Assembly (NCBI GenBank): GCA_965197865.1
Contig: CBDANZ010000005.1
Location: forward strand, 631,237-695,236
Source: Vicinamibacterales bacterium
GTDB lineage: Bacteria > Acidobacteriota > Vicinamibacteria > Vicinamibacterales > CAVVIG01
Direction: 5' to 3'
Length of the DNA stretch: 64,000 nt
The notes below the pieces were generated by a model that made no database searches, was not told where the DNA came from, and saw only the letters and a program-made list of their open reading frames with translations. Position numbers and translations under genes: made by a program. This document shows positions 44,797 through 58,054 of the stretch, piece after piece (the first letter of the stretch is position 1; each line of letters opens with the position of its first letter).

Positions 44797-45021
44797 GTGC
44801 GATTGGTTGAACAAGGCGTGGCCCTGTCGCAGGTGCGTGATCTCCTGGGCCATGCCTCGATCACGACGACCGAGCGCTACGATAACCAGACGTTCGCAGC
44901 ACTGAAAGCGACGGCGGAGCGACTGGAATCTGGCAAGTCTTTCACAATTCCTTCACAATCCGGGGCCGCAACGAGGAACGTCGCGCTGTTCTCCGAGTGG
45001 AAGAAACGCGCAAATGGTTAA
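44797..45021 (+). pseudogene. Tyrosine recombinase/integrase C-terminal remnant
   Basis: GVALSQVRDLLGHASITTTERY (His and catalytic Tyr); ends next to the tRNA-Gln 3' end. Confidence 0.8.
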
Positions 45022-45042: not shown

Positions 45043-45116
45043 TGGCTGGGAGGCAGGGATTCGAACCCCGATACCGTGGTCCAGAGCCACGTGTCCTACC
45101 GTTGGACGACCTCCCA
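45043..45116 (-). tRNA. tRNA-Gln (anticodon CTG)
   Basis: TGGGAGGTCGTCCAACGGTAGGACACGTGGCTCTGGACCACGGTATCGGGGTTCGAATCCCTGCCTCCCAGCCA; full cloverleaf, encoded CCA. Confidence 0.96.
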
Positions 45117-46675: not shown

Positions 46676-47158
46676 TCGAACATTCTAAGGGCTCTCCAGC
46701 TTACGGCTTCGGGCATCCTTACTTACCCTTTGCTGAGACCCGCCCAAACGCAGGCTCAAGCTGCCCTAGGTTCCCGGCTAGGCGCCTCGGGCCGAGATTC
46801 GCATGCGCGAAGCCTCGGCACGGCTGCCTCGGAGCCGACCGAGGTATGGAACATGTTCGACGACAAGAACCTGTAACATTTTCGCGCCGTGCTGGGACAG
46901 GCAACCCGAACGCGAGGTGGCGACCGAGTTGCGCCGCGATCACATCAACATTTCTTAAAGCGATAGTTTCACGGTCGTGTTCGATACGTTCCATGATCTC
47001 CGCAACGGGTTTTTCTTTCAGACCAATCCGTTTGGGCCGGGGAGGCGGATCTGCGCGAAGGCGTGGAGCGCCTGAACGGGGCGACCGGGACAATGTCCTG
47101 GGGCAATCGCCCGAACGCACGCGCGGATGCCACTCGGTAATCCGCGTCAGTCATCGAT

Positions 47159-47193
47159 GCCGGGGTGGCGGAACTGGCAGACGCACAGGACTT
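47159..47193 (+). repeat. 35-bp exact copy of the 5' half of tRNA-Leu (att-like direct repeat)
   Basis: GCCGGGGTGGCGGAACTGGCAGACGCACAGGACTT is identical to 57966-58000 and ends in the anticodon loop. Confidence 0.9.
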
Positions 47194-47633
47194 GAGAAAC
47201 TGTCCCGCCTTTCTCGGATCCGCCGAAAACTGAACAATCGGAATACATCGACCTTCTTTCTACAACGCGTAGAGTTACGAGCGTCTAGCTAGGCCGGCGG
47301 TCGACACGCGCACGCTGGCGCTTGAGTTCGCCGAGGCGGAGCGGCAGGCGCTCCAGCGGGAGGCGTGGACGGGACAGGCCTGAGCATCCGCTTGTGAGAC
47401 TTCGTGAAATCATGCGTGGAGCCGCAGTCATGAGCGCTCGAAGATCCTTCCAGACTCGTCGGGCATTACGGCACAGACGGCCAGTCAGCTCATGCTATCG
47501 GTAGGCCGCACTAGGGGCCGGCCGGAAGACGTGGCACCGTCGCGCGTTCGCACAGCGGTGCGGCAAACCGGCCACGGAATGTGTCGCGAGGCACCCGAAC
47601 CGCGCGCAACACGCGATAGGTCCGACGGCCTCA

Positions 47634-47886
47634 TCAGTGCCGGCGATCTGGCCGGTCTTCGATCCGATCGCGGAGGCCGCCGTCATGCCGACCATCTCGA
47701 CGGTCTTCACGGCGGTCGCGCACGTCCTCGCGGCGATCGCGACGATCCTCCCGGCGATCCCGAACGTCTTCGATGCGGTCCTTGCGGTCCCAATGACTCT
47801 TTGGGGTTGCCGCGAACGCCGCGGACCCTTGGAGCCAGCGCAGCTACCACGAGGGCTGCGAACAGAAACCTTACGGCTTTACTCAT
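47634..47886 (-). pseudogene. Small secreted Asp/Arg/Glu heptad-repeat protein (DRREDVR repeats) with a +1 frameshift
   Basis: MSKAVRFLFAALVVAALAP, then after one extra base GSAAFAATPKSHWDRKDRIEDVRDRREDRRDRREDVRDRREDRRDGRHDGGLRDRIEDRPDRRH*; span 253 nt = 3n+1. Confidence 0.7.
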
Positions 47887-48294
47887 GACGTTCGTCTCCA
47901 GGAGGATACTGATCCGGTTAGACTTCCATGGCCCGCAGAAGGCTTAGTGGCCCTGGCTATTGTGAAAAGGCGAGACGGACAGAAAATTCGTCGAAAATCG
48001 CGTGGCGGCTGTGGGCCTGGTAATGACGGAACGTGATCGCGAGTTGTTGGTTGAACTGCCAGGGTATGCGAGGTGGAACCACGCCCTGGTGGAATTGGCA
48101 GGCGAAGCGGCGAGGCTGAGCCGGTTGGCAACAGCGTACGATCTTGCAATGGCGCATTACTGGTTCGACCCGCGTCCAAGTTCCATGTTCAGAGCGTTTC
48201 CTTCACCGTGGTGGATGCGTCGATGCAGGCGGCCGAGGGCCCGGCTCGCTTGCGACGTTCTGAATCAGATGACCGACTTTGGCAGGCCAGTGTC

Positions 48295-48415
48295 GTACGG
48301 CATCGGTCGGTCCCCCCTGGAAGCCTGCCGCGCTCCCCAAACTCGAGTAGCGCAGATACCAAGTGCAGTCCGCGGGTCGAAACACAGCTAGGTCAGTCTT
48401 GCCAGCGCCGTCATA
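48295..48415 (-). pseudogene. FG-GAP/VCBS repeat fragment
   Basis: YDGAGKTDLAVFRPADCTWYLRYSS resembles the DYDGDGKTD.AV.RP...W repeat. Confidence 0.55.
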
Positions 48416-48504
48416 ATGGCAGACACGGGTGTTCCAGCCCGCCCCCATTGGAAGCCTACTGCGGTCCCCGTGCTGGAGTACCGGAGATACCAGCTCAAGT
48501 GAGA

Positions 48505-51500
48505 ATGACACTTAGAAGCGCGTGTAGGGCTGTTGTCGCGGTTCTGATGGTGGTGTCGACGGCGCTGGCGCAGCCCCGCTGGACGGACACGTTCGCCGTC
48601 AGTCCGTTCTCGAATATTACCGGGGCCGCCGAGGACGACTGGATGGGCGCCGGCATCGCCGAGACAATTGCCGCCGACCTGACGTCAATCAGTCAGGTGC
48701 CCGTGGTGCAGATCCCGTTGGCGAACGCCGCCGTGGGCGCCCGGTGGATGGTGACCGGCGGGTATCAGCGCGTCGGATCCCGCCTGCGCATCACGGCGCG
48801 GATCACGGACGTCTCCACCAACACCATCGTCCATTCGGCGCAAGTGAACGGCGATGTGGCCGAGCTCTTTGCTCTGCAGGACCAGCTCGCCGCCGAGTTA
48901 CGGACGGGACTACCCAGGGACACGATCGCCGTCAGTCCGTTCTCGAATATTACCGGGGCCGCCGAGGACGACTGGATGGGCGCCGGCATCGCCGAGACAA
49001 TTGCCGCCGACCTGACGTCGATCAGCCAGGTGCTCGTGGTGCAGAGCCCGTCGGCGAACGCCGCCGTGCGCACCCGGTGGATGGTGACCGGCGGGTATCA
49101 GCGCGTCGGATCCCGCCTGCGCATCACGGCGCGGATCACGGACGTCTCCACCAACACCATCGTCCATTCGGCGCAAGTGGACGGCGATGTGGCCGAGCTC
49201 TTTGCTTTGCAGGACCAGCTCGCCGCCGAGTTACGGACGGGACTACCCGGCGGCGCCGGTACGGACGCCCGGCTCGGCCCACCACCCGCCGACCCCGCGG
49301 ATGCGCCAATTGCCGCAGCCTCGCTTCCAACCGCACCGCCCTCTGGTGGCGCGGCCCGGGGCAGTTTCGCCTCGATGCCAACGAGCATCATCGATGGTCC
49401 CGCGGCGCCGGAGGCCCCGGCCACGCTGACCCGCGACGCCGTCGGTCGCGTCACGGTCCGGGCCGTCCGGCTCGAGGCGCCGCTCGAACTGGACGGGTCG
49501 CTGAACGAAGCCTTCTATGCCACCGTGCCCCCGCTGGATGGATTCATCCAGCAGCTCCCCGACGAGGGCGAACCCACCACCGAAGGGACCGAAGCGTGGG
49601 TTCTCTACGACGCGCAGAACATCTACGTGTCAGCCCGACTCTGGGACACGGCACCGGAGTCCGAGTGGGTCGCCAACGAGATGCAACGCGACTCGCGCCA
49701 GCTCATCAACAACGAGAGGTTCCTCGTCTCGCTCGACACCTTCTACGACCGCCGGAACGGATACGCGTTCCAGGTGAACCCGATCGGCGGGTTTTTCGAC
49801 TTTCAAATCACCGACGAAGGTGATCCCAATATGGACTGGAACCCGATCTGGGACGTGCGAACCGGCCGTTTCGAGGGCGGCTGGACGGTCGAGATGCAAA
49901 TTCCGTTCAAGTCGTTGCGCTATCGGCCAGGCAGCGCCCAGATCTGGGGACTGCAGCTCGGGCGACACATTTACCATAAGAACGAAACGATCTTCCTGAC
50001 CCCGGTGCCGATCTCCGGAGGTCCTGGCGAGTTCCGACTGTCCGCCGCGGGTACCGTCACCGGCATCAACGTGCCCGATGGCAACCGGACGTTCGAGATC
50101 AAGCCCTACGCGATCGGCTCGAGCGCAACCGACCTCAATGCGGACCCACAGATCAGGAACAACGGCGACGGCGACTTCGGCGTCGACGTCAAGTACGGCC
50201 TGACGCAGAATCTCACCGCTGACTTCACCTATAACACCGACTTCGCGCAGGTTGAGGTGGACGAGCAGCAGGTCAACCTGACCCGCTTCAGCCTGTTTTT
50301 TCCAGAGAAGCGTGAGTTCTTTCTGGAAGGGCGCGGCACCTTCGACTTTGGCCGCGGTGTCACCTTCGGCGTCGGTGGCGGACCGGGCGGCAACGGCGGC
50401 CGGCCCGGCTCCGGCGGGTTCCGCGGCGGCCGCCTCGTCCCAAGCATCTTCTTCAGCCGCCGCATCGGGCTCGAGTCTGGTGACACGGTGCCGATTCTGG
50501 GCGGTGGCCGCTTGACCGGCAAGGTAGGCGATTTCAGCGTCGGTGCCCTCAACATCCAGACCGACGATGTCGAGGACTCTGGCGTCACCGGCACGAACTT
50601 CACGGTCCTGCGGCTCAAGCGCGACGTCCTCCGGCGCAGCAGCATTGGCGGCGTCTTCACCAGCCGGTCGGTCTCGCTCGAAGGCGAAGGCTCGAACCAG
50701 GCCTTCGGCGTCGACGGCGCGTTCTCGTTCTACGACAACGTGAACTTCAACGGGTATTACGCGCGCACGCAGACCCCGGGACTGGAAGGCGAGGACGACA
50801 GCTACCAGGCGGCCTTCACGTACAATGGCGACCTGTATGCGCTGGGTGTCGACCACCTGCTCGTCGGGGACAACTTCAACCCCGAGGTCGGCTTCCTGCG
50901 ACGCACCGACTTCCGGCGCACGTTCGTGCAGGCCCGGTTCAGCCCCCGACCGTCTTCCCTGGAGCTCGTACGCCGGTTCATATGGGGCGGCAGCCTCGAC
51001 TACATCGAGACCGTCGCCGGTCAGGTTGAGACCCGGGTCGCGCGAGGAAACTTCCAAACCGAGTTTGAGAATAGCGATCGATTTAGCGCGGACGTACAGC
51101 GGAGCTACGAGTTCCTCTTTGACCCCTTCGAGATTACGGACGACGTGACCATCCCGGTCGGCGGGTACGAGTTCCAGGACTACTTCGCGTCGTATTCGAT
51201 GGGGGCCCAGCGGCGAGTGGCCGGTGCCTTCTCGGTGCAGCGTGGTGAGTTCTTCGACGGCAACATCACGACCGTCGGCTATTCGCGCGGCCGAATCGAG
51301 ATCACGCCGCAGTTCTCGTTTGAGCCCAGTGTGTCGGTCAACCGCGTCGAGTTGCCCCAGGGCAACTTCACCACGAACCTGGCGACGACCCGAGTCACCT
51401 ACACCTTCACGCCACGCATGTTCTTCGGGGGGCTGCTGCAGTACAACTCAACACGGGACACCTTCTCCACCAACTTCCGACTGCGATGGGAATATCAGCC

Positions 51501-51624
51501 TGGGAGCGAGCTGTTCGTCGTCTACAATGACCAGCGCGACACGGAGCTGGTCGGTGGTCGCGGCTTTCCGAAGCTGGAAAACCGCGCCTTCGTCGTGAAG
51601 TTCACACGCCTGTTTCGATTCTAG
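48505..51624 (+). CDS. Exported DUF5916/CBM9-like outer-membrane protein with a duplicated N-terminal TolB-N/FlgO-like domain
   Basis: Signal peptide; 2 x 111-aa domain; LDGSLNE...W, DFTYNTDFAQVEVDEQQVNLTRFSLFFPEKREFFLEG; C-terminal Phe. Confidence 0.85.
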   Translation: MTLRSACRAVVAVLMVVSTALAQPRWTDTFAVSPFSNITGAAEDDWMGAGIAETIAADLTSISQVPVVQIPLANAAVGARWMVTGGYQRVGSRLRITARITDVSTNTIVHSAQVNGDVAELFALQDQLAAELRTGLPRDTIAVSPFSNITGAAEDDWMGAGIAETIAADLTSISQVLVVQSPSANAAVRTRWMVTGGYQRVGSRLRITARITDVSTNTIVHSAQVDGDVAELFALQDQLAAELRTGLPGGAGTDARLGPPPADPADAPIAAASLPTAPPSGGAARGSFASMPTSIIDGPAAPEAPATLTRDAVGRVTVRAVRLEAPLELDGSLNEAFYATVPPLDGFIQQLPDEGEPTTEGTEAWVLYDAQNIYVSARLWDTAPESEWVANEMQRDSRQLINNERFLVSLDTFYDRRNGYAFQVNPIGGFFDFQITDEGDPNMDWNPIWDVRTGRFEGGWTVEMQIPFKSLRYRPGSAQIWGLQLGRHIYHKNETIFLTPVPISGGPGEFRLSAAGTVTGINVPDGNRTFEIKPYAIGSSATDLNADPQIRNNGDGDFGVDVKYGLTQNLTADFTYNTDFAQVEVDEQQVNLTRFSLFFPEKREFFLEGRGTFDFGRGVTFGVGGGPGGNGGRPGSGGFRGGRLVPSIFFSRRIGLESGDTVPILGGGRLTGKVGDFSVGALNIQTDDVEDSGVTGTNFTVLRLKRDVLRRSSIGGVFTSRSVSLEGEGSNQAFGVDGAFSFYDNVNFNGYYARTQTPGLEGEDDSYQAAFTYNGDLYALGVDHLLVGDNFNPEVGFLRRTDFRRTFVQARFSPRPSSLELVRRFIWGGSLDYIETVAGQVETRVARGNFQTEFENSDRFSADVQRSYEFLFDPFEITDDVTIPVGGYEFQDYFASYSMGAQRRVAGAFSVQRGEFFDGNITTVGYSRGRIEITPQFSFEPSVSVNRVELPQGNFTTNLATTRVTYTFTPRMFFGGLLQYNSTRDTFSTNFRLRWEYQPGSELFVVYNDQRDTELVGGRGFPKLENRAFVVKFTRLFRF
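48586..49248 (+). repeat. In-frame tandem duplication, period 333 bp
   Basis: 48586-48915 vs 48919-49248 differ at 10 positions by manual comparison. Confidence 0.95.
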
Positions 51625-51639
51625 ACGCGCTGCTCACTT

Positions 51640-51775
51640 GTGTTGAGCATCGGCGAGCATGTCTCCAAGAACAACGGGTCAGTGCGCTCCGTGTTGCCGC
51701 TCATGAACGCGCTGAAGCGTTCCCCGCCTTTCCAGGTGCTCATCATGTCCAAGGAATCGCGCCTCGGCCGCATGG
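51640..51775 (+). pseudogene. Large serine recombinase (resolvase domain) remnant
   Basis: LMNALKRSPPFQVLIMSKESRLGR resembles the resolvase V...SRLGR motif. Confidence 0.6.
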
Positions 51776-51924
51776 CCGGTCATGGGGCACGAATGAGAGG
51801 AGCATGGCCATGTCGAAGACGTTTCGTCACCGTCCACATCGGCCGGATAGTTCGACGAGCGCCCACCAAGGCGCGGGGGCGTGACATCCGGTGGGCGCTG
51901 AGAGAGGGGAAAACGGCGCTGGGT

Positions 51925-52050
51925 ACCACACGACACGTTCTGGTGACGGGTTCGACAGGAAACCAGGGAAGGGCGGTCATCGAGGGCCTACGGACTCGAG
52001 GCCATCGCCTCCGCGCGTTGGTCCGAGACCCAGGTGCAGGCGAGGCGTAG
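51925..52050 (+). pseudogene. NmrA-family NAD(P)-binding protein N-terminal remnant
   Basis: VLVTGSTGNQGRAVIEGLRTRGHRLRALVRDP, then a stop. Confidence 0.6.
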
Positions 52051-52148
52051 GCCGGCGGCTCGGCGCAAAGCTCGCCGCCGTGTGTGGATGTGTGATGACG
52101 GTGGCCGTGCGGCGCCGGCGTCAGCTAAGCGACCGCCGGATCTTCCGG

Positions 52149-53474
52149 TCAGTCAACGGCATGGAGCTGATAGTCCTTCAACAAGATGTCGGCGTCGGCC
52201 GCGTCGTCAGGCAGAACCTGGAGCCAGAGAACTCCCATCTCATCAGAGGGGTGCACTCCCCACCGGACCCGCCGCGGTGGGTAATGCGGGTTGCGCACGT
52301 TCGCGTCCGAGTTGTCGTAGAGATATTCCATCTTGAGCGTGGACCCGCTCGGAAGCTCGATGGGTCTCGCGTATCGATACTGTTCTGCCCAGTGGGCATC
52401 CCACTCTTTGATCCATAGGAGCCACCTCATTGCTCCGTCTGGAAGCGTCGCCGTGGCCCTTATCTCCTTTGCTAGGTTGTGCGCGTGCGGGTAGACGCTC
52501 AGGACCTGGAGGCCCACCGGCAGGACGTAACTATCGACTACCGCATGATCGCGGCTGCCGGCAGGGATGTCGATTGTTCTGGAGCTCAGTTTGAGCAGGA
52601 TCGGGTCGCGCGCCGGCGGTGTCGGGGAAAAGTACAGTGCGATGCTCGGTTGGATCGACTCTGGAGTGCCAGTCGGCCGCAATTGCAGTTGCATGACGAG
52701 GTCGCTTCCCGGTTCGAGCCGCCACGCCATGCCGTCGGGTTCCACCCATGGCGTCGATCCGGGCACCCAGACACTCAGGCGGTCCCCTGGGCCGTCCATG
52801 TGGTCGAGCAGCATGCCAGGGTACCCGGGCTCACGATCTCTTGCGTCGAGCGTTCGAGCCGTTGGCGTCCGGTCGATGCCGACGACCGCGTGACGAAGAA
52901 TCCTGGAGTTGTCAGGTCGAATCTCCATGGCTCGCACGTAACGCGTGGAAGAGACGGGAGCGGGGATGACGAGAGTCCGAAGAACCTCCGTGCCGTCCGC
53001 GATCAGCGTGTAGGGCTGCGGCGCGCGAACAACCATGTCCGGCTCACCAAGGCGCCAGCGGTCGGAAAATGTCGGCACGGGGGGAGGATCCGGCGCTCCT
53101 TCGGGAGCTCCGTCATCGACCCACCGTTGAAACATCGCGATCTGATCTGAATGCAATAGCTTTGCGTTCAGGAATTCGTTCAACTCTGAATCAGGAAGCC
53201 ACGGTGGCATGGCCCGGCGCAGCATGCTCACCAAGAGCGGCCCGGAGCGGCTTTGCACATCTTGATAATCGAGGAGTGGAAGGGGCGTCTGCTGACCCGG
53301 ACGATGGCAGTACGTGCACTGCTCGAAGATCATCGGCGCGATGTCCTGGTTGAACGTCAGACGGCGCGGCTGGGAGCCGTCGATCGCATCGCCCGGATCG
53401 CCGCCGCGGCACCCCGAAAGCGCCGTCATGATCAGGCTACCGAGGAGTACCGCGAGCAACCACGCGTCCTTCAC
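52149..53474 (-). CDS. Lipoprotein with a c-type heme motif fused to a copper type II (PHM/DBH-like) monooxygenase-like domain
   Basis: Lipobox LSGC; CTYCH; MPPW; PHAH (HxH) and DEM motifs in the C-terminal domain. Confidence 0.72.
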   Translation of the reverse strand: MKDAWLLAVLLGSLIMTALSGCRGGDPGDAIDGSQPRRLTFNQDIAPMIFEQCTYCHRPGQQTPLPLLDYQDVQSRSGPLLVSMLRRAMPPWLPDSELNEFLNAKLLHSDQIAMFQRWVDDGAPEGAPDPPPVPTFSDRWRLGEPDMVVRAPQPYTLIADGTEVLRTLVIPAPVSSTRYVRAMEIRPDNSRILRHAVVGIDRTPTARTLDARDREPGYPGMLLDHMDGPGDRLSVWVPGSTPWVEPDGMAWRLEPGSDLVMQLQLRPTGTPESIQPSIALYFSPTPPARDPILLKLSSRTIDIPAGSRDHAVVDSYVLPVGLQVLSVYPHAHNLAKEIRATATLPDGAMRWLLWIKEWDAHWAEQYRYARPIELPSGSTLKMEYLYDNSDANVRNPHYPPRRVRWGVHPSDEMGVLWLQVLPDDAADADILLKDYQLHAVD

Positions 53475-53831
53475 AGTATAGAATCTACCATTTGTCCGTC
53501 GTGGCCCCGCCTATTACGCCTACAAGATCGACACGACGACCGGAGCGGATTTCGCCCAGCCCGGCCATGTTGGCCAGGCCGACTACGTGACGTGCCAAGA
53601 CTTACGAGAATTACGAGGCGATAGAAACAGAATAGGGACAATCGCGCCCGTGCTGGGGGCTGCGGGGGTTCCTAAACGTCAGACTCAGACTTTCCCCCCC
53701 CCTTGAGAACACTTACGCCGATGCGAATCCCCGCAAGTCTCCATGGTGATGGGTCAGGACCTCATCCTGACCTGGCCGTCGACTTAAGAAAAGCCGCACA
53801 CCGACTCGAGTTTTCGTTTACTGTGTGACGC

Positions 53832-54113
53832 ATGGATATCGAGTCGACTGAGCGCGCCACGTATGCCGACAGCCTGAAGGTGGGATGGTTCCTTACCTGG
53901 CGCTCAGCGGTTGTCGCACTCGTTATTGGCTGGGGTTGGGGTTTCGTCGCGTTCCCGCTCGAGTTGGTCTACACGGACGAGTGGGCGGATTTCACTGCGG
54001 TTGTTTCTGGTGCACTTGGGGGCTTCTTCCTTGGCGTGCCCTGGGCAGTCCGGATGATGCTAAAGAAACCGTTCCATGGGTTCCGTATTCAGCTCGTTCG
54101 TGTCAGCGAGTGA
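53832..54113 (+). CDS. Small 2-TM hypothetical membrane protein
   Basis: Open 93-aa ORF with two hydrophobic helices; no family recognised. Confidence 0.55.
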   Translation: MDIESTERATYADSLKVGWFLTWRSAVVALVIGWGWGFVAFPLELVYTDEWADFTAVVSGALGGFFLGVPWAVRMMLKKPFHGFRIQLVRVSE

Positions 54114-54370
54114 GGTGCTGGGGCTGCACTGACTAGTGCCTAGGTTCCGCAGACAGAGTGCGTCGAAGGTCAAGATTCTGGCCGATTCAAAGAGTATGGC
54201 GGGGGTGGCCCGTTGGTCGTCCAAGAGTCGTCGTGCCGGCAGTTCGACGCTGCCGTCTCGCCGAGCTGCATGCCGTCGCCCGGGTTAGACGCGCCGCCGG
54301 AGCCAGAACGTCGCGACCAGCAGCCCCGAGGCGGGCAGCCAGCTCGGGACGGCTTACTGCAGGGAGGACA

Positions 54371-55201
54371 GTGTTACGGATCGTCCCGATGTGTCTCGGC
54401 CTGGGAGCGGCGTTTGCCGCACAGCCGGTCGACGTAGACCTGGCGGTGAGGCGCGTCGGCAACTACGTCGAGCAGTACTACACGCGCGTGCAGAGGTTCC
54501 TGCTGGAGGAGACAGTAATCTTGCAACCGCTCACCCCGAACTGGTCATTCGACGGCTTTGCGCGGCGGCTGGAATACGAGCTTCGTGTCGAATGGAATCC
54601 GTCGGCAACGAAGGAACCGGCGAGGGTGGTCCGCAAACTGATCCGCGCGAATGGGCCGTCGCTCGGCCCGCCTGATCAGCCGGATTGCATGGACCCGCGC
54701 ACCATCTCCCCCGAGCCGCTGGCGTTTCTGCTGCCGGATCGGCGCAGCGCGTTCAATTTCGAGGTAGCCGGCTCGACGCGCATTGACGGCCGCGAGGCCG
54801 TGATGCTCGATTACCGAGTCCTGGCGCGCGAGCAGCCTCAGGTGGAATGGAGCGGCCACTGCGCCTGGGTCGACCTGTCCGGCCGTACGCGCGGGCGCGT
54901 CTGGGCGGATGCGGACACCTTCGAGATCCTCCGCTTCGACGAGCACCTCGTTGGGCCTGTCGACATCCCGAGGCCGCGCGAGCGGCGCGCCTACGGGCCA
55001 CGATCGTTTACCTTCGAGCGAGCCGATACCTCAATTCGTTACAAGCTCGTGACGTTCGAGAATCCGGACGAAACTCTCATGCTACCGGAGCGGATCGAGA
55101 GTATGACCATCGTCAGGAACTCCGGCGTTCCTCGGCTGCGCACCACACAGACCTACGACAACTACCGCCGGTTCGTCACCGATTCGCAGATCGTCCGGTA
55201 G
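54371..55201 (+). CDS. Exported hypothetical beta-rich protein (LolA/MucB-like sorting-fold candidate)
   Basis: RBS AGGGAGG before GTG 54371; signal peptide; beta-strand-rich, ends YDNYRRF. Confidence 0.65.
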   Translation: MLRIVPMCLGLGAAFAAQPVDVDLAVRRVGNYVEQYYTRVQRFLLEETVILQPLTPNWSFDGFARRLEYELRVEWNPSATKEPARVVRKLIRANGPSLGPPDQPDCMDPRTISPEPLAFLLPDRRSAFNFEVAGSTRIDGREAVMLDYRVLAREQPQVEWSGHCAWVDLSGRTRGRVWADADTFEILRFDEHLVGPVDIPRPRERRAYGPRSFTFERADTSIRYKLVTFENPDETLMLPERIESMTIVRNSGVPRLRTTQTYDNYRRFVTDSQIVR

Positions 55202-55297
55202 TTTGTTTGGTGCCTTCACACTCCGCGACCCTCTTCACCCCCGATCAAGGGCGTTGTGTTTACTGAAAGCTCGTCAGCGCCGAATTCCTGAGGCAGA

Positions 55298-56121
55298 GTG
55301 GCGACCGGGACCATTCTGGCCGGATGGCCCACGCAGCTTCGCGTCGTCCACATAAGATCGTTCGACATGGAGAAGCCAGACTCGATGTGGGTGCGTAAGG
55401 TGTTCATGGCTGGCGGACAAGATCCGTTCAACGCGATGGATGCTGACGCACGCGACGCGCTGTCGCTGATGTATCAGGTCGTCACTGGGCGGGATGGCTT
55501 GGTGCGGCACGCCCTTCAATTCTTGCTGCCAAGTTACGCAGGCGACGAACGTACTCCGCACTCATATTCCGAAGCCTCGAACTAGACGAAGGGAGTGAGA
55601 ACCATATAAGCAAGCAGCAGGTTGACTGGTCGAAGGTCGATCTTGAGGCCATCACGAAACAAATTCTCGACAACGCCGTGGCCGAGCTCCGCAAGACCGA
55701 GCAGAAGGCGAGACCATCGGCGACGCCGGTTGACGAGTTAGAGGCCGAAGTAACGCGGATCGTCAACGCGGGGACCGGCTTGACGCGCGAGCTGGTCGTC
55801 ATGGGCATCCTCATGAACAACGCCGACCTCGCGCGCCGGCTGAAGCGGTTCATCGAAGAGCAAGACGGCGGCCGCGAGAAAGCGCTGCGAGCCATCAGCG
55901 ACCGCGCAATCGCGGTCGGCTTGGAAAAGGGCGGCGGCGCGGCGGCGGAACTGGATTGGCGTGCCCGCGCGCGAATGCAGAAGGGCGACGAGTCGTCGCG
56001 GTTCAACCGTCCACAACAAAGGCGACCCCGAGAGGTCGCCTTTAGATACTCACGCCCTGCCGTGGCCAGTGCTGCTGGTTGTCTTGTTTCTGTGCGAGCG
56101 CCCACGGCTGGTACGGAATGA
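55298..56121 (+). pseudogene. Possibly one frameshifted hypothetical gene (track ORFs 55298-55585 and 55678-56121)
   Basis: The 55678 frame is open upstream to about 55520 without a start codon and overlaps the end of the 55298 ORF. Confidence 0.3.
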
Positions 56122-56389
56122 TCCCGCCTTCGACGACGCCGATCGATCCGGGCACCGAGCTGGCGGCGCCCAGGGCCAGCGCGGGCGCGGCGGGCACTTC
56201 CGCCAGCGGATGCACACCCGGTTGCGTCACGAAGCCTGGCCGCGCCGCATGCGCCTCGAGATCCCAATTCGCTTCATTCAAAGTCTGCCAGACACCGCTG
56301 AAATTCGGATGTCCGTCGAGTCGCGCCAGCCGCTGACCCTCGCCCGAGTTCTGCGCGTGCACAATGGCGACGATCGAGACTGGTCCCAC
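56042..56389 (-). pseudogene. Truncated paralog of the PDLxGxW hypothetical family
   Basis: DGHPNFSGVWQ...WDLEAH...IPYQPWA, then a premature end. Confidence 0.55.
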
Positions 56390-56422
56390 GGGCCAGCGCA
56401 GGACGCAGTGCGCAGAAAACAG

Positions 56423-57595
56423 TTACCGGCCGCCCGGGCCCCTCGGCGGTGTGACGACGTTCAGCGTGGTCGGATCGGGGCCTCGTCCCGCGGCAAAGTC
56501 GGCCTCCAGCTTGCGCGTGCCTGCGAGCACGCCGAGCATCCCAAAATTTCCCTCGTGGCACCGCGGCTCCCGGTAGATTCGATTGTACTTATCCTCTTGC
56601 TTGCGGTACTCCTGTTTGACGGTCCACGGTTTCGTCCACGTCGTCTTGTCGTCCATAGTGGCGACGTATTCGAGCGTATCCGGGCCAGTGCGGGTCCAGC
56701 GTTCCACGAGATGGAGGTTCTCGGTGGTGGATCCCACACGGTAAGTTGGGACGCCCGATCTCGGGAATTCGGTCTTGCCGCTGAAATTGGTGACATCGAC
56801 GACCAGCGTATCGCCCTCCCAACGGCCACGCGAGTCTCCCCACCAGAAACGGACTGACTGCGGGAGATGCGGACTTCCATCCACAGGGATTGTTCGGTGC
56901 CAGGCTTGGCCTTGCCCGGTGTCGTAGAAAATCGAGACCCTCTTCGGCGACTGCACAATCTGACGGAAGCCACCGAAATCCGGCAGGTTACCTGACATGC
57001 ACCGAATGCTGAGGCCCCGTTCTTCCGGACCGTCGGAACGATTGAATTTTCCAATCGCTGGGTAGTACTTGAGCGGTCGGGGTTTCGCGTTTGGATCGTA
57101 CTTGCCGCCCTCACATCCAGGAAGCTGGTCCTTGCACCGGTTCGTGGGTAGCACCAGCGCGAGATAGAACGCGCGCCACTCCTCTTGTCGCTTCAGTGCT
57201 TCAGGCGTGAGGGGCGGTATGCGCCCGTCTGGCGGATCCACAATCAACGACGTGCGCCGACTCGTGTGTTTCCGAGAGGTGAACACCGCATTGTAGGCGC
57301 CAGAGACGTCCGCTTCGCTTCCTGGCGCTGCGCGCCTATCACTCCCTAGCTGCCTTGCTCGCTGCGTGTCCAGTTCGGCAATCTCTGCATCGGTCAGGGA
57401 CTCGCGTCCGGCAAACCTTTCCGGCCGCTGCAGGGGTGTCTGAAATTCGTCGGTCCATATGCCCTGCAGGTCCGGTTCGTCCCACGAGGTCTTGAGCGCC
57501 GACGCGGCTGTTGTCGACGTGCGACACGCGGCGCCGGCCAGCGCCACCATGGCGATCGCGACCATGACCTTCAACTCGAGAGATCGGCGTTTCAT
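56423..57595 (-). CDS. Exported/lipoprotein hypothetical protein of the PDLxGxW family
   Basis: Lipobox-like GAAC; SWDEPDLQGIW, WWGDSRGRWEGDTLVVD, HLVERWTR, WTKPWT, CHEGN. Confidence 0.8.
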   Translation of the reverse strand: MKRRSLELKVMVAIAMVALAGAACRTSTTAASALKTSWDEPDLQGIWTDEFQTPLQRPERFAGRESLTDAEIAELDTQRARQLGSDRRAAPGSEADVSGAYNAVFTSRKHTSRRTSLIVDPPDGRIPPLTPEALKRQEEWRAFYLALVLPTNRCKDQLPGCEGGKYDPNAKPRPLKYYPAIGKFNRSDGPEERGLSIRCMSGNLPDFGGFRQIVQSPKRVSIFYDTGQGQAWHRTIPVDGSPHLPQSVRFWWGDSRGRWEGDTLVVDVTNFSGKTEFPRSGVPTYRVGSTTENLHLVERWTRTGPDTLEYVATMDDKTTWTKPWTVKQEYRKQEDKYNRIYREPRCHEGNFGMLGVLAGTRKLEADFAAGRGPDPTTLNVVTPPRGPGGR

Positions 57596-57939
57596 GTGCC
57601 CCCCAACCAACTTTGACGTTCGGGTCGCGCCGCTCATTCGAATGCCTTCAAGTTCCGGACGAAAGATCCTGATTATATACTTCACGCGTCGACGATCAAG
57701 CCGTCCGGTCTCCGTTAACAGATGAGTCAGGTAGCCGACATTTCCGATCTCGGACGAGGCGGGTGCGGCCGAGATCGACAGCTCGTTCGCAAGGCCGCAG
57801 ATGACGTCTGCTGGGTGCTTGTGCGAAAGTATCCTGCTCGAGTCGCGGATCTATGGCGATGGAAGGCGATGGGGACAAATCGCGTGGACAATCGCCCGCA
57901 CGCAAGCGCCGATGCCAAACAACGGTCCGAGTAAGTTGT

Positions 57940-57948
57940 TGCTATAAT
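57940..57948 (+). promoter_or_regulatory. Extended -10 promoter for tRNA-Leu, located inside the island end
   Basis: TGcTATAAT (perfect TGnTATAAT) 17 nt upstream of the tRNA. Confidence 0.65.
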
Positions 57949-57965
57949 GGAATTTCTCACTTGAC

Positions 57966-58054
57966 GCCGGGGTGGCGGAACTGGCAGACGCACAGGACTT
58001 AAAATCCTGGGTCCCGCAAGGGGCGTGTGGGTTCGAGACCCGCCCCCGGCACCA
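57966..58054 (+). tRNA. tRNA-Leu (anticodon TAA)
   Basis: GCCGGGG acceptor / CCCCGGC-ACCA, anticodon arm CAGGA-CTTAAAA-TCCTG, long variable arm, GGTTCGAG T-loop. Confidence 0.95.

Follow-up and report, generated by a model that had tools for sequence, protein, structure and literature searches.

A decayed tyrosine-integrase element probably inserted through the 5′ half of tRNA-Leu(UAA), with a fossil integrase 3′ end as the likely promoter of the gene

Why should the first half of a tRNA gene lie, letter for letter, 10.8 kb upstream of the intact gene, and from what kind of DNA is the intact gene likely to be transcribed? These questions are raised by a stretch of 64,000 nucleotides (nt) from a soil acidobacterium of the Vicinamibacterales (assembly GCA_965197865.1, contig CBDANZ010000005.1, positions 631,237 to 695,236), here called the window, in which an earlier reading made from the sequence alone (the sequence-only reading) had placed an island at 47159-58054. 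ARAGORN finds two tRNA genes in the 64-kb window, one for tRNA-Gln(ctg) (45043-45116, −) and one for tRNA-Leu(taa) (57966-58054, +). The initial 35 nt of the second gene (GCCGGGGTGGCGGAACTGGCAGACGCACAGGACTT) have an exact second copy at 47159-47193 (+), in direct orientation and 10,807 nt away from start to start, and the identity (tRNA positions 1-35) breaks off at the first anticodon base, within the loop CTTAAAA. Over the following 9 nt the two copies match at 5 of 9 positions (GAGAAACTG versus AAAATCCTG), and the whole repeat is 89% identical over 47 nt. An exact 35-mer repeat within 64 kb is far beyond chance. The sequence-only reading had reported both this repeat, ending at the anticodon loop, and a perfect TGnTATAAT 17 nt before the tRNA gene, and both are confirmed, the latter as TGcTATAAT at 57940-57948. 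The interval is bordered on the left by the gene for GluRS together with tRNA-Gln and on the right by a gene for a TonB-dependent receptor. We consider it likely that 47159-58054 is what decay has left of a tyrosine-integrase element that entered tRNA-Leu(UAA) by recombination in its anticodon loop and in reversed (5′-side) orientation.

The similarity of the two copies continues upstream of the tRNA sequence, where 47080-47151 and 57865-57936 are 71% identical and where the left copy has a 22-nt gap at the place at which the right copy has its −10 region. Each of these stretches resembles the 3′ end of a tyrosine-integrase gene, and we refer to them as tail A (beside the displaced half) and tail B (beside the intact gene; Table 1). 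The intact integrase with which we compared them comes from locus L165, in a Vicinamibacterales metagenome-assembled genome. (Compared genomes carry labels such as G017 and G042, the source genome is G000, and L165 and L225 are surveyed integrase loci.) L165 encodes a tyrosine recombinase of 361 amino acids (aa; PF00589, 55 bits) that ends in YRRYAITSEADLREGVDRLNATGTICRDNRADAKRDANLQSA, and its stop codon, the TAA of CCGCG-TAA-GTT, lies 31 nt before a tRNA-Leu(taa) gene on the same strand. Moreover, the frame of this integrase spans the whole of a motif, GGGACAAT...GGACAATCG...GATGCCA...CCGCG-TAA-GTT, that we also find upstream of tRNA-Leu genes.

Tail A matches the C-terminus of the L165 integrase with 63% identity over 35 aa (E 6.6e-4 in a search of the whole genome) and with a Smith-Waterman protein score of 88 as compared with 29 ± 5.5 for shuffled sequences. 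An integrase remnant of G017, used as a tblastn query, matches 47039-47089, where 12 consecutive residues (EADLREGVERLN) are identical and the DNA differs synonymously. Note that tail A keeps only sequence past the catalytic Tyr, and that the R..HxxR..Y catalytic domain is absent from the interval. Tail B contains arm-like repeats (GGGACAAAT at 57872-57880 and GGACAATCG at 57886-57894) and its DNA gives Smith-Waterman z-scores of 16 against the 3′ end of the L165 integrase gene and 15 against tail A; the stop codon and the −10 of this right copy align with those of L165. When the 130 nt upstream of the tRNA were compared with L165 in the same manner, z was 30 for the left copy, 16 for the right copy, 25 for G017, 26 for the tRNA-Leu(caa) gene of the source genome itself and about 6 for G002 and G001; three control genomes with unrelated upstream regions gave a z of about 0. 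Judging from these alignments, the DNA directly upstream of the intact tRNA gene is of mobile-element origin and represents a fossil integrase 3′ end. Of each integrase only about 35 codons are left, and neither element can move any longer.

Intact relatives show what such elements look like. In a survey of the integrase family that covered 80 loci in GTDB genomes, 58 loci have a tRNA gene immediately beyond the 3′ end of the integrase. In 42 of these the tRNA gene converges with the integrase at no more than 200 nt (as is classic for elements that carry the 3′ half of the tRNA gene), and in two it lies further away. In the remaining 14 (about 24% of the sampled tRNA-bearing loci) the tRNA gene is on the integrase strand and the element lies upstream of it, four times at tRNA-Leu(taa). 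The integrase stop codon is 6-54 nt before the tRNA gene in 11 of these 14 reversed loci; the tRNA promoter must therefore overlap the end of the integrase gene. In G044 a 13-kb element retains an intact integrase, in G043 the 5′ fragment lies 10.7 kb upstream of the tRNA gene and a frameshifted integrase abuts it, and in G042, which carries the intact L165 integrase, the 5′ fragment is on another contig. At 10.7-13 kb, these elements have a common layout of 5′ fragment, cargo, integrase and tRNA gene; no cargo common to the interval and the elements of G042, G043 and G044 was found. Among 40 genomes of the family and order, fragments of both tRNA halves are common, and several of them adjoin integrases or integrase remnants. 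In every fragment the break falls at the anticodon stem-loop, the 5′ fragments reaching tRNA positions 38-42 and the 3′ fragments beginning at 29-31. The tRNA-Leu(taa) gene is an integration hotspot, and members of a single integrase family occur at its loci in both orientations. The claim of the sequence-only reading that integration went through the 5′ half of the tRNA gene holds up, since the architecture is that of anticodon-loop recombination with a carried 5′ half and the intact relatives are alike. (We also observed that at L225, G043:C10:488500-507000, the 10.7-kb 5′-side element upstream of tRNA-Leu(taa) is accompanied by a 3′ fragment about 6 kb downstream and by a convergent integrase-tail remnant. 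With elements on both flanks, one tRNA gene has therefore been used from both sides.)

The motif upstream of the intact gene can be written as GGGACAAT..GGACAATCG..GATGCCA..CCGCGTAAGTTGTTG.TAnnAT. It is also found before tRNA-Leu(taa) in G017, G002 and G001 and, in weaker form, in G016; in the source genome it occurs only at the two tRNA-Leu(taa) copies and at tRNA-Leu(caa). The −10 position is kept as TAGGAT, TACGAT or TACACT in G017, G002, G016, G001, the source genome's tRNA-Leu(caa) and L165. Our initial interpretation of this motif, as a promoter native to the family, was dropped because intact integrases read through it. Paired GGGCACAAT-type repeats followed by GTAAGT are also present at integrase 3′ ends next to tRNA genes for Arg, Met, Lys, Ser and selenocysteine and in convergent loci, where a role as tRNA promoter is impossible, which argues that they are element DNA rather than a host tRNA-Leu promoter. 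In intact elements the paired repeats recur about 150-190 nt past the 5′ fragment, and such a placement on either side of the core is what one would expect if they were arm-type sites. To the right of the displaced fragment in the window there are GATCCGC and GGGACA motifs, as at that position in intact elements; GATCCGCG and GGGACA repeats stand at matching distances past the 5′ fragment in G042, G043, G044 and G017, although these are short motifs that lend weak support.

Taken together with its homology to an integrase 3′ end, the presence of TGcTATAAT in the 130 nt upstream of the tRNA gene suggests that this stretch includes the likely promoter of the gene. A fossil tail also lies upstream of tRNA-Leu(caa) in the source genome (C3:460483-460664), with no family integrase nearby in a genome-wide search. 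(Fragments of the 3′ part of tRNA-Leu(caa) were noticed at C3:450031 and C2:142857.) The idea that the island supplied the new promoter of the tRNA gene can therefore be kept as to the origin of the DNA, which the integrase-tail homology assigns to an element, and not as to novelty, since the displaced copy is also element-derived and the promoter was not new in kind. The suggestion that this end of the island would be hard to lose is supported, in that the tail and the −10 have survived deletion of the integrase here, in other genera and at tRNA-Leu(caa) of the same genome.

We propose the following course of events. In this family attP would lie directly past the integrase gene and would be made up of the last ~35 codons (in which the paired GGGACAAT-type repeats probably serve as arm sites) with the stop codon, followed by a −10 and by the 5′ half of the tRNA gene as far as the anticodon loop. 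Upon integration the resident 5′ half and its promoter would come to lie at the opposite end of the element, and the integrase tail, −10 and 5′ half of the element would be joined to the resident 3′ half. At least two successive 5′-side integrations would account for the locus, an older element A and then an element B that would extend from 47194 to about 57965; because an integrase tail stands before the displaced copy too, A would have overwritten the native promoter before B arrived. Element A would survive as a tail, an arm and a 5′ half, joined near 47036 to the fragment of a DUF5916 pseudogene and with its −10 deleted, and element B would have lost its integrase and retained its tail, TGcTATAAT and leader. 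Later deletions would have removed both integrase genes except for about 100-130 nt next to the tRNA sequence, presumably because an indispensable tRNA gene has its sole promoter there, while the displaced copy would have been free to lose its −10. Note that this order of events, like the assignment of the whole 10.8 kb to B as cargo, is something that we infer from the arrangement. As it stands, the interval is a degraded island and a dead remnant, because it has no integrase or other mobility gene.

How does this locus relate to known systems? Islander lists a 5′ fragment of the tRNA gene (tDNA) in 159 of 3919 islands (PMC4383910), in keeping with the description of 5′-replacing elements as a rare class in the sequence-only reading, and PMC6563490, citing Zhao & Williams 2002 (J Bacteriol 184:859) and others, treats integration that uses the 5′ part of a tRNA gene as an acknowledged, less common mode. 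As in the islands of this kind, an intact tDNA (57966-58054, +) has a cognate 5′ fragment in the same orientation upstream of it (47159-47193, +), the fragment comes from a gene end and is broken at a recognised crossover sublocation (the anticodon loop), the length lies within 2-200 kb, a tyrosine integrase family is responsible, and the element is 5′ of the gene, supplies its 5′ part and would supply its promoter. Unlike them, the locus has no complete tyrosine integrase in the island, only a ~33-codon tail; with an integrase cut to about 35 codons, the island would be rejected by the integrase filter of Islander. It differs further in that the displaced fragment carries an integrase tail too, which indicates serial overwriting, and in that reversed loci make up about 24% of the integrase family sampled here as against about 4% in Islander. 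The locus is a decayed new member of the known class of 5′-fragment islands.

Williams reportedly set out, in 2002 (NAR 30:866), an anticodon-loop class among tRNA integration sites. It is class 'A' in Islander, and phage examples are HP1 in tRNA-Leu and P22 in tRNA-Thr. The locus resembles this class in that the crossover falls in the symmetric anticodon stem-loop (the half fragments overlap at about positions 30-42). It differs in that the classic examples bring in the 3′ half, whereas here the 5′ half came with the element, together with the likely promoter. In Mx8 and SSV the integrase gene extends across or abuts attP (PMC4383910). There is a likeness here as well, since integrase coding sequence overlaps an arm of the attachment site and the presumed arm repeats fall in the last codons; unlike in Mx8 and SSV, integration leaves the integrase unsplit, and its overlap with the arm and with the DNA before the −10 of the tRNA gene is limited to the tail. 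Less familiar are the packing of integrase frame, putative arm repeats and likely tRNA promoter into ~130 nt, the reversal of about a quarter of the sampled family loci, and the fossilisation of the tail as a tRNA upstream region across genera.

In Streptomyces, bldA is the gene for tRNA-Leu(UAA) and acts as a developmental switch. The sequence-only reading had suggested a bldA-like control of TTA-containing genes by the element. The tRNA species is indeed identical, and it reads the rarest Leu codon of a GC-rich genome (793 TTA codons, 1.08 per 1000 codons and 1.1% of Leu codons); the likeness is nominal only. In a bldA-type system TTA would be restricted to few genes, either regulatory or non-essential, which is not so here. 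At least one TTA is present in 611 of 1924 proxy open reading frames (ORFs; 32%), which is about a third of the long ORFs and not a small regulon, and tRNA-Leu(UAA) is therefore a housekeeping gene whose promoter is probably constitutive. No regulator is present and the element can no longer act, so that the suggestion is not borne out. A search for other tRNA-Leu(TAA) copies, which the sequence-only reading had recommended, left the intact gene as the only canonical one. Two further ARAGORN calls of Leu(taa) were rejected as UUA decoders, being tRNA-like sequences in a repeat resembling an insertion sequence, with no Rfam tRNA match at E ≤ 0.01. (These calls, at G000:C2:365364-365457 (+) and G000:C3:434823-434916 (−), are identical over 94 nt and have the anticodon TAA, G73, a 7-bp variable arm and an aberrant T-loop, TCCGAAT. 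They lie inside a 100%-identical repeat of 2469 bp and are followed there by a 429-aa ORF that has a SWIM-like CxC..CxH motif and looks transposase-like by eye.)

Several results weigh against reading the interval as the remnant of an element. No empty site was found: 40 genomes of the family and order have no synteny around tRNA-Leu, and a metagenome scan with GluRS gave nothing closer than 74% identity. The best GluRS relatives (74%) have tRNA-Ser(gct), not tRNA-Leu, upstream of GluRS, and metagenome contigs with GluRS 57-74% identical show the order tRNA-Ser(gct)-GluRS-tRNA-Gln(ctg). Between the tRNA copies, Pfam and PHROGs searches of the ORFs found no integrase, excisionase, transposase or phage gene, and a six-frame genome scan found no PF00589 match at E ≤ 0.01 in C5:678395-689290. 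The composition of the interval is host-like (GC 0.630 versus 0.639; 69th percentile for tetranucleotide distance when ranked among 10.7-kb windows), a test that is uninformative as to foreign origin here, and each cargo gene has paralogs elsewhere in the genome. The protein-level match of tail B to L165 is not significant (z of ~2.5), the tail being recognisable only as DNA. A two-hexamer promoter scan calls nothing at TGcTATAAT because there is no −35 match, which makes the site an extended −10 candidate only. Finally, the conserved motif is also present in G002 and G001 with no family integrase within 10 kb on either side, and taken alone this could be read as a native promoter. Much of this evidence would suit a history in which both tail-plus-tRNA copies are real scars and the 10.8 kb between them are host DNA, brought there by rearrangement (recombination of dispersed tail/tRNA repeats, inversion, or deletions in a larger array). 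The missing mobility gene, the host-like composition and the origin of all of the cargo in multi-copy genome families fit such a history; so do the left flank, which is clearly rearranged (tRNA-Ser(gct) lies 198 kb away), the fusion of the DUF5916 pseudogene fragment to tail A, and the about 30 integrase hits in the genome, many of them fragments, along with an orphan 5′ fragment at C2:214115. What speaks against it is that size and layout equal those of the full-architecture elements of G043 (10.7 kb) and G044 (13 kb), that fragment and gene are in direct orientation, that the GATCCGC and GGGACA motifs stand to the right of the fragment as in intact elements, and that the secreted-protein family beside tail B recurs in other tRNA-Leu islands. 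We judge rearrangement to be an unlikely source of the interval.

A second alternative dispenses with the mobile element altogether, taking the upstream motif as the native tRNA-Leu promoter and the left copy as a partial segmental duplication. It draws on the presence of the motif before tRNA-Leu(taa) in G002, G001 and G017 and before tRNA-Leu(caa) in the source genome, with a family integrase within reach only in G017, and on the restriction of the motif to tRNA-Leu genes in that genome. Against this, intact integrase genes read through the motif in frame, tail A shares 12 residues with an integrase while the DNA changes are synonymous, the repeats occur at integrase 3′ ends next to tRNAs for other amino acids and in convergent loci, and the duplication ends exactly in the anticodon loop, which is the break point of both halves in many genomes. 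This alternative is largely refuted, and we regard it as very improbable. The sequence-only reading had held that its own inference would fall if relatives lacking the island had the same promoter sequence; on its face such sequences exist, and they are fossil integrase tails as well. It had also named an assembly artefact as a possible source of the 35-bp copy. Nothing specific points to one beyond the general properties of the assembly (five contigs, 4.5% estimated contamination), and the short copy has unique flanks and lies well inside a 931-kb contig, with an architecture that recurs in independent genomes, so that we give this explanation practically no weight.

If the locus is the remnant of a 5′-side element, it is evidence, at the level of sequence, that an indispensable tRNA gene can have its promoter permanently replaced through a mobile element, with an integrase tail and a −10 that outlive the rest of the element both in the source genome and in related genera. 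Scars of this kind would explain the strong differences between the upstream regions of tRNA-Leu(UAA) in related acidobacterial genera, and they call for caution with 'conserved tRNA promoter motifs', some of which may be left over from elements. We entertained a more far-reaching idea, which we hold to be doubtful: that the promoters of tRNA-Leu(UAA) and tRNA-Leu(CAA) in this acidobacterial family are not ancestral and are serially overwritten integrase 3′ ends that outlive their elements, and that binding of family integrases, resident or incoming, at the retained arm repeats could modulate the sole UUA decoder. Were this true, integrase binding before the −10 would amount to a real, modest control of the element over translation. 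An integrase family in which reversed integration is common would also be a good system for the study of attP orientation switching. In annotation, 'degraded island' is the fitting label for the interval, and not 'active element'.

Table 1. Coordinates of the features at and around the tRNA-Leu(taa) interval (window positions)
Feature	Position	Strand	Remarks
DUF5916/CBM9-family outer-membrane protein, pseudogene fragment	46878-47036	+	In-frame stop; cut where tail A begins
Fossil integrase tail A	47042-47140	+	EADLREGVERLNGATGTMSWGNRPNARADATR, then stop; last ~33 codons of a tyrosine integrase; stop TAA 47138-47140
Direct repeats GGGACAAT / GGGCAATCG in tail A	47087-47109	+	Putative arm-type integrase binding sites
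Displaced tRNA-Leu(taa) 5′ half, attL-side core	47159-47193	+	Exact 35 nt; ends in the anticodon loop
Element-side arm beside the displaced fragment	47194-47378	+	Degenerate core GAGAAACTG 47194-47202; GATCCGCC 47217-47224; GGACGGGACAGG 47366-47378
Cargo, DUF5916/CBM9 outer-membrane protein	48073-51624	+	Pfam; likely start near 48535, at signal peptide; >10 genome paralogs
NmrA-like N-terminal fragment	51640-52050	+	Pfam PF05368, model positions 2-38 only
Cargo, lipoprotein with CxxCH heme-binding motif	52149-53474	−	No Pfam match; four paralogs, 20-28% identity
Cargo, protein without assigned function	54158-55201	+	Frame backed by periodicity of third-position GC (GC3); 79%-identical paralog at C4:339272
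Cargo, secreted protein without assigned function	56423-57685	−	Likely start 57595; promoter-like site 57699-57672
Fossil integrase tail B	57836-57934	+	Ends in ADLWRWKAMGTNRVDNRPHASADAKQRSE, then stop; stop TAA 57932-57934 in CCGAG-TAA-GTT
TGcTATAAT, extended −10 candidate for tRNA-Leu	57940-57948	+	17 nt from last T to tRNA start
Intact tRNA-Leu(taa)	57966-58054	+	A73, CCA encoded; the genome's only canonical UAA-anticodon tRNA

The contents of the interval are listed in Table 1. In the DUF5916 cargo protein, an FlgO-like N-terminal module is doubled by a 333-bp tandem repeat (48585-49217, 97% identical), and tblastn with this protein identified the pseudogene fragment that abuts tail A (46% over 54 aa, C5:678114-678272, E 5e-7). 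The NmrA-like fragment is a sign of decay within the interval. Paralogs of the secreted cargo protein are 52-60% identical, and one of them, at C3:450713, adjoins a 3′ fragment of tRNA-Leu(caa); a fragment of the same family lies beside an integrase fragment in an island of G012 (G012:C18). A possible remnant of a P4-like integrase (G012:C36) at 55627-55950 (tblastn, 33% over 108 aa, E 0.002) was rejected, as it was unconfirmed by Pfam and PHROGs at relaxed thresholds.

Other observations concern further traces of integration in the source genome. The orphan 5′ fragment of tRNA-Leu(taa) at G000:C2:214115-214148 is 97% identical over positions 4-37, and no integrase was found within about 17 kb of it. 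Several integrase-like frames on several G000 contigs contain in-frame TAG codons. The tRNA-Ser(gct) gene (C5:876039-876132), which in the source genome is 198 kb from GluRS, has 27-nt copies of its 3′ end at C5:847160 and C5:890959, with integrases at C5:875435 and C5:846545, an arrangement that suggests tandem islands and a large rearrangement. Closer to the interval, a C-terminal PF00589 remnant at 44800-44892 (+) (model positions 139-169, E 6.5e-4) is convergent with the 3′ end of tRNA-Gln(ctg) and has weak similarity to the integrase family of the tRNA-Leu elements; it is probably the scar of a second island, of the classic 3′-side kind.

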